Shown here in pieces: positions 7,478-9,207 of a stretch of DNA of 12,574 nucleotides. The stretch lies in the IMG/VR virus record IMGVR_UViG_2518645559_000002; one strand, given 5' to 3'. Source of the DNA: a virus. Lineage: Duplodnaviria; Heunggongvirae; Uroviricota; Caudoviricetes. The position numbers were made by a program, and so were the translations under genes. Below the pieces are notes generated by a model. It saw nothing but the letters and a program-made list of their open reading frames with translations, had not been told where the DNA came from and did not search any database. Position 1 is the stretch's first letter; every line of letters starts with the position of its first letter.

Positions 7478-7494
7478 GTTGGAGTCATTACCCT

Positions 7495-9207
7495 ATGGCT
7501 GTTTATGATGCGTATGGTTCGCAGCAGTTCTATTTTCCGAATGTGTTGAAGTATGATCCTGATCAGCTACGGCAAGAATTACAGGGGAGCGCAGGAGTCA
7601 TTATCGTTGGTGGTGCTATTCTCGAATGCTCATCCGTTGAACAGGCCCAATCAATATTAGGGTTAACAGATGGGAAAAAGGTTAGAACTTATTATTATAA
7701 TGTTCCAGTTGTAACAGATTGGGTGTTTACAACTGAAAAACCACAGTCACCTATATTTTATATTTCTGCAGTTGGTGGGTATCTTATTTTAATGACGCCT
7801 AATTTCGCTTCCGCTGGCATTATTGAAGGTGAATATGTTCCGCTAAACGCCGCGCATAACCGTAATGTAATTCAAAAACTGGTAAGAGACACAAGATTCA
7901 GTAAATTTGAATATGGTGCAACAGGTACTTTTTATGTTCTTGGCTCTATTCATCCATTACGAGATAATATAGAAATACACCACGAAGCTGGGGTTACAGT
8001 TATGGGGCGTTACGATGACCCCACGGTAGGGCCAGAAATTATGGGGTTAAACTCCGGGGGTATGTGGTCCTTTGCACATTTTCTTAACCCTGATGCAACG
8101 GTTTGGGATGGCAATAACTACACAATTACAGCTGTTATGAAAAATGTTACCTACATTCTTAACGGCAAGATAGGTACAGAATATAACTCCATTCATTCTA
8201 AACCGCACAACAACAACCCTATTGGTTTCTTTACTTGTGAAAACTGTAGCGTTGTCGGCTCTGGCGGGGTTATTGGATCTGACCACCGCGGCATTAACGT
8301 AGATGGCGCAGGAGATAATTGCCGTATAGATATTGGGTACGTCACGGGAACCAGCAACAACCCGCTTCAAATGAAAATAAACGCCGAACGCTACGCTTTT
8401 GTTAAAGTTGGTGCTGTTTATGGGGTTAAGTTTGACGGAGGACAAACAAATGCTGTTGTATGGTGCAGTGGTGGACGAATTGATGTTGAAGTTGGCAATT
8501 ATAGATGGGATGGGGTGAATAAACCAATCCTTGCTTACGGCAACAATTGCCAGGAAATCACTTTAAAGGCAGGTATTATCTCTGGTGTTTCGCAATTGAT
8601 GCGTCAGTATAACACCCCTGTGGCTAGAGTGCTGTCTGCGTGGGTAAACAATACAGACTCTCTCATAAACAAAGCGGAAGACACTGACAAGGCTGGTGTG
8701 ACTAAGATTTCTGAGATACGGGGTGTTAACGCAGATGACGCAGTACTTACCAGCGTATTCTATGATGAAACTAAACTATCAACTCAAGAGGTGGTTATCA
8801 TATGTGATAATAATTTTAAAAAAGCAAGTAGTTCATTTGTTTATTTTAAAGGAAAAACATCATCAGGCGCAATAACATCATGGTACTCGCAAAATAATAT
8901 AGACCCATCTAACATAACTGATTTTTCTGATTGGAATATAAAAATAGGACAAAGTGGTTTATTATCCATATCTGGATTATCATTTTCATATAAAATAAAT
9001 AGAAGGTTTCAGTTTTTATCTGTTCAGTTTGTTGATAGCGGAGGTACAGAACGAGTCATAACTATACCAATAGTTATGACACTGGCAACAACGACAACTG
9101 TTAGTTACATTGCAGGAACTAGCAACTTAAGTGTGACTAGAGTGGGAGATACGTTATCTGCAGTATTAAGCGCAGGTAGCTTGCGCTTTGCTAAGGAGCA
9201 CAATTAA
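7495..9207 (+). CDS. P22-like tailspike protein lacking the N-terminal head-binding domain; 570-aa ORF beginning at an internal Met 2 nt after the IS1 end
   Basis: N-terminus [24 protein letters not shown] aligns with P22 gp9 ~residues 95-120 ([26 protein letters not shown], from memory). The rest is Gly/Asn/Thr/Ser/Val-rich, as in beta-helix receptor-binding domains. The 3' third is much more AT-rich. Confidence 0.7.
   Translation: [570 protein letters not shown]

Follow-up and report, generated by a model that had tools for sequence, protein, structure and literature searches.

The tailspikes of the Lederbergvirus-type phages P22 (gp9), Sf6 (gp14) and HK620 (gp9) begin with a conserved head-binding domain of 113 residues, through which the trimer is docked to the tail, and their genes are found in a common order in which the tailspike is followed by an O-antigen modification gene and by int. 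A tailspike with specificity for the O104 antigen of Escherichia coli has been described by Scholl and colleagues (Scholl 2012, PMC3303846). Here a shortened copy of that same gene is analysed. It is located in a stretch of 12,574 bp (IMG/VR record IMGVR_UViG_2518645559_000002, hereafter the window), which is 100% identical to positions 2,371,235-2,383,808 (reverse strand) of the chromosome of E. coli O104:H4 FDAARGOS_348 (NZ_CP022086.2). The locus is a defective P22/Sf6/HK620-like prophage at argW of E. coli O104:H4. The shortened copy is an open reading frame (ORF) of 570 codons (7495-9207, + strand; RefSeq WP_001401377.1) beside a copy of the insertion sequence IS1 (6725-7492, + strand, 768 bp). 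The full-length outbreak gene was used in PMC3303846; the window ORF corresponds to residues 90-659 of the outbreak allele with 100% identity, and an allele without the first 89 codons is not described there. This ORF is very probably a recent, lineage-restricted remnant of an IS1-adjacent deletion, most likely silent and with no selected function.

The tailspike gene used by Scholl and colleagues was taken from the genome of an outbreak strain (EGR74047), and residues 114-659 or 118-659 of its product were fused to the R2 pyocin fibre. The resulting particles (engineered pyocin AvR2-O104.1) kill O104 strains and a K9 strain and spare rough mutants. The same paper places the gene in a prophage remnant with a putative O-antigen acetylase just downstream, and mentions an apparently complete prophage in strain 55989 (PMC3303846). 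A later survey lists an O104-specific receptor-binding protein subtype, based on the Scholl work (PMC10408124). The tailspike, its O104 specificity, the adjoining acetylase and the remnant prophage were therefore already known from 2012, and the truncated allele is already present in RefSeq.

A second system to which the locus can be compared is IS1 itself. IS1 makes replicative adjacent deletions without direct repeats (Turlan and Chandler 1995, cited in the review PMC9330008). It also forms fusion promoters, with the -35 hexamer in the end of the element and the -10 hexamer in the flank, and these activate blaTEM and acrEF (PMC9330008). Adjacent deletions by IS1 are textbook events, and the ORF in the window is a product of ordinary prophage decay. 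The classic gal/Tn9 deletions are said to be IS1-mediated adjacent deletions as well, and the fusion promoters were reportedly described by Prentki et al. in 1986.

The IS1 copy in the window is of the IS1B type and has all the features of the family: a length of 768 bp, imperfect terminal inverted repeats of about 23 bp (GGTGATGCTGCCAACTTA.../...TAAGTTGGAGTCATTACC), and insA and insB' joined by a programmed -1 frameshift. The insA gene is located at 6780-7055 and the insAB' frameshift product extends to 7477, both on the + strand, with Pfam matches to Zn_ribbon_InsA, HTH_Tnp_IS1 and DDE_Tnp_IS1. The IS1 promoter PIRL was matched at 6732-6759. On its left side the element cuts a gene of the early-left operon, of which a 3' fragment is left (6575-6724, - strand), labeled as a 'TolA' pseudogene by the Prokaryotic Genome Annotation Pipeline (PGAP). 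When intact, this gene encodes 322 aa and is found at 34846-35814 of the NCCP15648 prophage locus. No target-site duplication of 8-9 bp is present at IS1, the left flank being TGCTCTACG and the right flank CTATGGCTG. Since a simple insertion predicts such a duplication and an adjacent deletion predicts none, the flanks point to a deletion.

The original prediction, made from the letters of this DNA, had the ORF start 2 nt after the right end of IS1, with a GGAG from the element about 10 nt upstream and an uninterrupted frame of 570 aa. All of this was confirmed. IS1 ends at 7492, the two bases CT (7493-7494) follow, and the ATG is found at 7495; the GGAG occupies 7481-7484 within the right inverted repeat of IS1, 10 nt 5' of the ATG; and the frame is open throughout, from 7495 to the stop codon at 9205-9207. 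The bases CT are the final two of the parental codon Ser89 and the first that were kept past the deletion, which places the endpoint between bases 1 and 2 of tailspike codon 89. This breakpoint shows no microhomology to the end of IS1. A fusion of the ORF with the IS1 transposase frame was also considered and rejected, because insB' stops at 7475-7477 in another frame and no in-frame start codon exists upstream of 7495.

In a BLASTP comparison with the 659-aa tailspike WP_000129924.1 (strain 1070/13), the ORF covers residues 90-659 with 570/570 identities. The initial methionine had been assigned to about residue 96 of P22-type tailspikes. This needs correction: it is residue 90 of the 659-aa parent, and Met90 of the parent is aligned with residue 90 of both Sf6 gp14 and P22 gp9. 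The parent contains a complete head-binding domain (Pfam PF09008, positions 1-113, E 2.7e-67). The window ORF retains only positions 90-113 of this profile (residues 1-24, E 2.8e-8), far from a full domain, and this remnant, encoded at 7495-7566 (+ strand), is predicted to be disordered. The capsid-binding domain, earlier described as gone, has thus lost 89 of its 113 residues, while the last 24 are still present. Without those 89 residues the window copy cannot serve as a virion component. WP_001401377.1, entered in RefSeq as a 'phage tailspike protein', is the known gene with its 5' part missing and does not represent a separate protein.

The origin of the truncation is visible when O104:H4 strains are compared. 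Strain NCCP15648 has the prophage without IS1, and at about 40 kb it appears complete: it contains cI, cro, cII, the replication, nin and Q genes, tRNAs, holin, endolysin, spanin, terminase, the virion genes, mnt/arc/ant, tailspike, acyltransferase and intS. Relative to NCCP15648, three deletions begin at the same base and cover 12,552 bp in the 2011 outbreak strains, 28,674 bp in 1070/13, and 29,301 bp in the window. The 12.6-kb deletion of the outbreak lineage removes the immunity, replication, nin, Q and lysis regions, and in 2011C-3493 IS1 is followed by DUF2560, terminase, portal, coat and other virion genes. The 28.7-kb deletion of 1070/13 additionally removes all virion genes up to ant, and here IS1 is followed first by what is left of the Ant antirepressor, a C-terminal fragment, and next by the intact 659-aa tailspike. 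The window endpoint is found 627 bp beyond that of 1070/13, inside the tailspike, and IS1 is followed by codon 89/90.

The IS1 sequence and the 30 bases on its left are identical in the three strains, while the right flanks all differ, and none of the three has the 9-bp target duplication. It is the same IS1 copy each time, at 6725-7492 in the window and at 9725-10492 and 14725-15492 in the two comparison loci (L002 and L003, respectively). The left junction is fixed and common to all IS1-bearing O104:H4 strains. A fixed end of the element, variable distal ends, retention of the IS and lack of direct repeats together argue for intramolecular replicative transposition. All of these are shared with the IS1-adjacent deletions of Turlan and Chandler (1995, via PMC9330008), where the fixed end, the variable junction, the intact IS1 and the missing direct repeats are the defining traits. 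The series is a natural three-step example of IS1-adjacent deletion in clinical isolates, and nothing in it differs from the known type.

The sequence of events would be as follows. With the IS1 copy located in an early-left gene, its right end would repeatedly attack sites farther right in the same DNA molecule, and each attack would delete the intervening DNA and leave the left junction unchanged, which would produce a nested series. The 29.3-kb event would have ended in codon 89, where the next codon, Met90, and the GGAG of IS1 would by chance have given gene callers a clean 570-aa ORF. A decaying remnant had been named as the fallback possibility in the original prediction, and it is this option that the comparative data (the nested deletions and the identity to the intact allele) support. 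The three-step, one-ended deletion series is also a possible lineage marker within O104:H4.

The distribution of the truncated allele is very narrow. A megablast search of the window was conducted against 5,426 complete E. coli genomes. The whole window was found in three records only: FDAARGOS_348, 1070/13 and the pAA- derivative of 1070/13, the latter two with the match split by the 627 extra bases. Eleven other complete O104:H4 genomes (including 2011C-3493, C227-11, HUSEC2011 and 2009EL-2071) match positions 1-7492 at 100% and then diverge. In all six of these for which coordinates were compared, the tailspike is located exactly 16,750 bp past the IS1 end. The IS1/tailspike junction itself was found in a single genome of the 5,426. 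The exact 570-aa product was present on 5 contigs versus 187 for the 659-aa form, so it is not conserved as a stand-alone protein. Among the 5 is CP003297.1, the finished genome of 2009EL-2050 (Republic of Georgia); over the 7.7 kb compared it does not differ from the window.

Between 7493 and 9260 the window and the intact outbreak-strain alleles are 100% identical in DNA sequence. As the truncated and intact alleles are separated by zero substitutions, the ratio of nonsynonymous to synonymous substitution rates (dN/dS) is not computable. The restriction to one sub-lineage, together with zero change from the intact allele, means that there is no signal of selection on the shortened form.

Judging by the identity over 7.7 kb, FDAARGOS_348 and 2009EL-2050 are very probably one and the same strain. 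The former has the label 'USA: Georgia', yet it shares this rare allele with an isolate from the Republic of Georgia, and the country label is probably wrong.

Other shortened ORF calls exist in the same 90% cluster. One is 356 aa long and begins at Met304 (8 contigs), and another has 169 aa and begins near residue 491 (3 contigs). Further forms in the cluster diverge after residues 463 or 372. This suggests that the tailspike gene is eroding in other strains too, and the shortened forms may represent further deletion or disruption endpoints. The 356-aa sequence derived from the window had no exact product on record.

The rest of the ORF is the receptor-binding module (parent residues 114-659; 7567-9204, + strand), predicted to consist of a parallel beta-helix and C-terminal beta-sandwich domains. 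In a search of PDB sequences with the ORF, the Sf6 and P22 tailspikes matched solely the head-binding remnant (24-29 residues, within residues 1-29), and no sequence relative of the receptor module with a solved structure was found. Pfam detected nothing above threshold on the module. A match to Glyco_transf_29 (E 0.008, below the gathering score) was regarded as noise.

An AlphaFold2 model of the ORF was built from an alignment of 40 homologues. It reached a mean predicted local distance difference test score (pLDDT) of 90.4 and a predicted template-modelling score (pTM) of 0.84, and its sole disordered part was the head-binding stump (residues 1-20, pLDDT <50). A Foldseek search of the PDB (cut-off E <=1e-3) returned 34 matches, every one of them a parallel beta-helix from a phage tailspike or depolymerase, or the tailspike-like protein WceF. 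The matches include Klebsiella K2-2 TSP, TSP2 and TSP4 of CBA120, Acinetobacter APK09, HK620, Sf6 and WceF. The Foldseek probability was ~1.0, yet the template-modelling (TM) scores were only 0.3-0.46 and identity was ~10%. The predicted beta-helix therefore resembles the P22, Sf6 and HK620 structures in fold, while the module has no detectable sequence similarity to those tailspikes and its structural identity to them is ~10% (TM 0.3-0.46). The assignment of the receptor module to parallel beta-helices of the tailspike type, which had been assumed earlier, is supported by the confidence of the model and by the uniformly tailspike-type matches.

The primers of PMC3303846 map to window positions 7570 and 7582. 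Since the window ORF contains residues 114-659, the whole experimentally sufficient binding module is present. The confident model and the functional 114-659 fusion indicate that the encoded module would probably fold if made.

In relatives of the receptor module at 29-78% identity, which come from Hafnia, Providencia, Enterobacter and Citrobacter, the N-terminal anchor is of at least four kinds: PF09008 (P22-type), PF18668 (TSP1/gp66-type), PF12571 and PF03906 (T7 fibre). In the homologue alignment S262-D263-H264, N239-N240, R123 and R156 (ORF numbering) are among the invariant residues. The S-D-H triplet, the N-N pair and the two arginines are candidate active-site residues.

Among the structural matches, WceF of Pantoea stewartii (PDB 6tgf, Foldseek rank 11) is a bacterial tailspike-like beta-helix enzyme that acts on the exopolysaccharide of its own producer. 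By analogy it may be taken as the nearest precedent for a tail-less tailspike-like enzyme on a producer's own surface glycan. The gene for WceF belongs to a polysaccharide gene cluster, and its product is a dedicated protein that is exported. The window ORF, in contrast, has neither an export signal nor a promoter and is a deletion product days to years old.

The original prediction referred to the known ability of IS1 ends to create hybrid promoters. The promoter consensus scan (threshold 9 of 12 matches) detected no sigma-70-like promoter near the junction, and the sole + strand match upstream of the ATG was PIRL at 6732-6759. A relaxed scan was run as well. It returned hybrid candidates with 8 of 12 matches, in which TTGGAG (7479-7484), TGGAGT or GAGTCA serves as the -35 and TATGAT (7504-7509) as the -10, at spacers of 16-19 nt (19 nt for TTGGAG). 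Transcription is predicted to start at ~7516, 21 nt past the ATG; the following ATG in the same frame corresponds to parent residue 189. Every candidate starts transcription after the ATG at 7495, and a hybrid IS1 promoter was for this reason rejected as the source of the 570-aa product. More generally, as the ATG is just 2 nt past IS1, any hybrid promoter must start transcription inside the ORF, and the 570-aa product is therefore possible only from a promoter wholly within IS1. The right end of IS1 in the window does share a -35-like hexamer (TTGGAG) and a good flanking -10 (TATGAT) with the known fusion promoters, but in such promoters a spacer of 16-18 bp and a start before the ribosome-binding site are expected, whereas here the start falls past the ATG.

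The prophage has lost its late promoter, its Q antiterminator and its lysis cassette of holin, endolysin and spanin genes. No signal peptide was predicted for the ORF: the first 15 residues contain 0 K/R, and nothing hydrophobic that would suggest export precedes ORF residues 33-44, where the first hydrophobic stretch is found, inside the fold. With no signal peptide and the lysis genes deleted, the product would be cytoplasmic and would have no route to the polymerised O-antigen. The locus is most likely silent, or produces at most traces by read-through from PIRL.

The deletion itself could have come about in a different way. A second IS1 might have inserted in the same orientation in tailspike codon 89, after which homologous recombination between the two IS1 copies removed the interval. 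Like an adjacent deletion, this yields a single IS1 without a target duplication, as seen, and IS1 is abundant in O104:H4, where 11-22 places per record match the IS1-containing query. However, an independent co-oriented insertion would be needed for each of the three endpoints, and IS1 was found inside the tailspike in none of the 20 complete genomes that hold the gene over at least 80% of the query. One fixed end combined with variable other ends is, moreover, the classic signature of one-ended intramolecular transposition. Recombination is thus unlikely, and we infer intramolecular transposition instead. The junction could also be suspected to be an assembly artefact caused by a collapse across IS1 repeats, given that IS1 is multicopy and that repeats often cause misjoins. 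But two independent finished assemblies obtained with different technologies (NZ_CP022086.2 and CP003297.1) agree base for base, short-read draft contigs from other samples contain 29-127 nt of IS1 end sequence joined to the tailspike at the identical base, and the genome is ~16-20 kb shorter than the outbreak genomes. The junction is real, and an artefact is practically impossible.

A further alternative is the one raised by the original prediction, a free protein that binds or cleaves the O-antigen. Low read-through from PIRL and the GGAG of IS1 would produce a head-less trimer, which would be released by lysis due to the Stx2 or another prophage and would alter the O-antigen, biofilm or phage adsorption on sister cells. 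Several observations weigh against a silent remnant and in favor of such a product. The 570-aa frame is intact, and IS1 and the ORF are co-oriented, which makes PIRL read-through physically possible. There is also a poor IS1-internal promoter-like match (ATGACA-19-GAACAT, start ~7468). The duplex of the GGAG with the anti-Shine-Dalgarno sequence has a predicted energy of -5.9 kcal/mol, compared with -5.6 for the native tailspike start and -3.0 for the internal Met90 context in the intact gene. If an mRNA exists, translation could start from the GGAG of IS1, which as a ribosome-binding site equals the native one in strength. Only ~3.6% of possible breakpoints leave an in-frame ATG 0-5 nt past the IS1 end, and the silence of the locus is itself inferred. 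Residues 114-659 suffice for O104 recognition (PMC3303846). The AlphaFold2 model is confident and has a depolymerase-like beta-helix. Head-less P22, HK620 and Sf6 tailspikes fold and are active, which likewise counts for a free protein, and crystal structures of such delta-N tailspikes are among the Foldseek matches.

These arguments are outweighed by others. That the start is so tidy is a modest coincidence, which in the case of one event gives no evidence of selection; nor is an ATG with a Shine-Dalgarno sequence beside an IS end evidence of expression. No promoter is usably placed, since the hybrid start falls after the ATG. PIRL is weak and repressed by InsA, and IS1 insertions are classically polar. 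A signal peptide is missing, as are lysis genes in this prophage, and the allele occurs in a single sub-lineage without any divergence. Cleavage has never been shown for the O104 tailspike: enzymatic activity is not reported in PMC3303846, the text of which contains none of the strings degrad-, hydrol- and enzym-. The proposal of a free O104-binding or -cleaving protein fails on promoter geometry, on the lost late promoter, Q and lysis genes, on the missing signal peptide and on the absence of a selection signal, and is very unlikely. Low-level read-through expression of a foldable head-less tailspike would by itself be very unlikely indeed. In the furthest-reaching version, the chance pairing of GGAG and Met90 would supply the 2009EL-2050 lineage with a low, constitutive level of a head-less trimeric O104-specific tailspike, freed by spontaneous Stx-phage lysis and trimming or masking the O104/K9-type polysaccharide on neighbours, with altered phage, pyocin or host interactions; this is extremely unlikely, although it would, if true, be the first natural example of an IS-domesticated free depolymerase. 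Were the protein made, it would be a ready soluble O104-binding reagent, yet cloning of residues 114-659 already provides one. For the silent remnant that is preferred here, the biological weight is small, and part of its modest value lies in correcting the annotation of WP_001401377.1.

The remaining features of the window agree with a prophage remnant. The sugar transporter gene cscB (1-1248, + strand; RefSeq annotation and ORF list) adjoins the prophage end marked by torI/xis (1778-1978), opposite intS. The early-left phage block runs leftward and, by RefSeq annotation, comprises torI/xis, eag, an ea22-like gene, the anti-RecBCD gene, erf, kil and cIII. At the other end the intS integrase gene (11417-12574, - strand) marks the limit of the prophage and adjoins argW (tRNA-Arg) just beyond the window. 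The integration site and the layout from intS to torI are shared with KplE1 (CPS-53) at argW of E. coli K-12, which has intS at one end and torI at the other and which we take to be a P22/HK620/Sf6-like remnant. The two differ in the extent of decay, and KplE1 is not known to retain the O104 tailspike.

Between the tailspike and intS is a gene for a 636-aa protein (from the PGAP start) with AT3 and SGNH acyltransferase domains (9278-11188, - strand; Pfam PF01757 and PF19040), a putative O-antigen acetylase. In the intact NCCP15648 prophage the order is ejection proteins, mnt/arc/ant, tailspike, acyltransferase, intS, and the window retains of it only the truncated tailspike, the acyltransferase and intS. 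The parent tailspike is thus in the position typical for the end of a P22-like late operon, before the conversion gene and int. It had been suggested that a depolymerase next to a polysaccharide acyltransferase could remodel the cell surface. The adjacency is real, but it is the ancestral order of the intact prophage and not a new pairing, and the product has no export route.

The convergent tailspike and acyltransferase genes are separated by an imperfect inverted repeat of 30 nt (9204-9272, core hairpin ~9225-9253). It looks like a bidirectional terminator, although it was not called in the consensus terminator scan. An Rfam scan of the whole window detected no RNA family. The 3' end of intS is overlapped by an 8-bp tandem repeat (AAACTATT, 11387-11442) that is located upstream of the acyltransferase gene. 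Its copy number differs between strains: the window, 2009EL-2050 and 1070/13 each have 5 perfect units, and NCCP15648 has 4.

Two minor differences were noted in the early-left block. PGAP divides the 209-aa ORF at 2386-3015 (- strand) into a 150-aa protein with a dATP/dGTP pyrophosphohydrolase domain and a short DUF550 pseudogene, and the start call varies, giving 453 nt in the window versus 531 nt in 2011C-3493. The anti-RecBCD protein (4717-5013, - strand) is WP_001111297.1 in FDAARGOS_348 and WP_001111299.1 in 2011C-3493, 1070/13 and NCCP15648, which indicates an amino-acid change private to the FDAARGOS_348 lineage.

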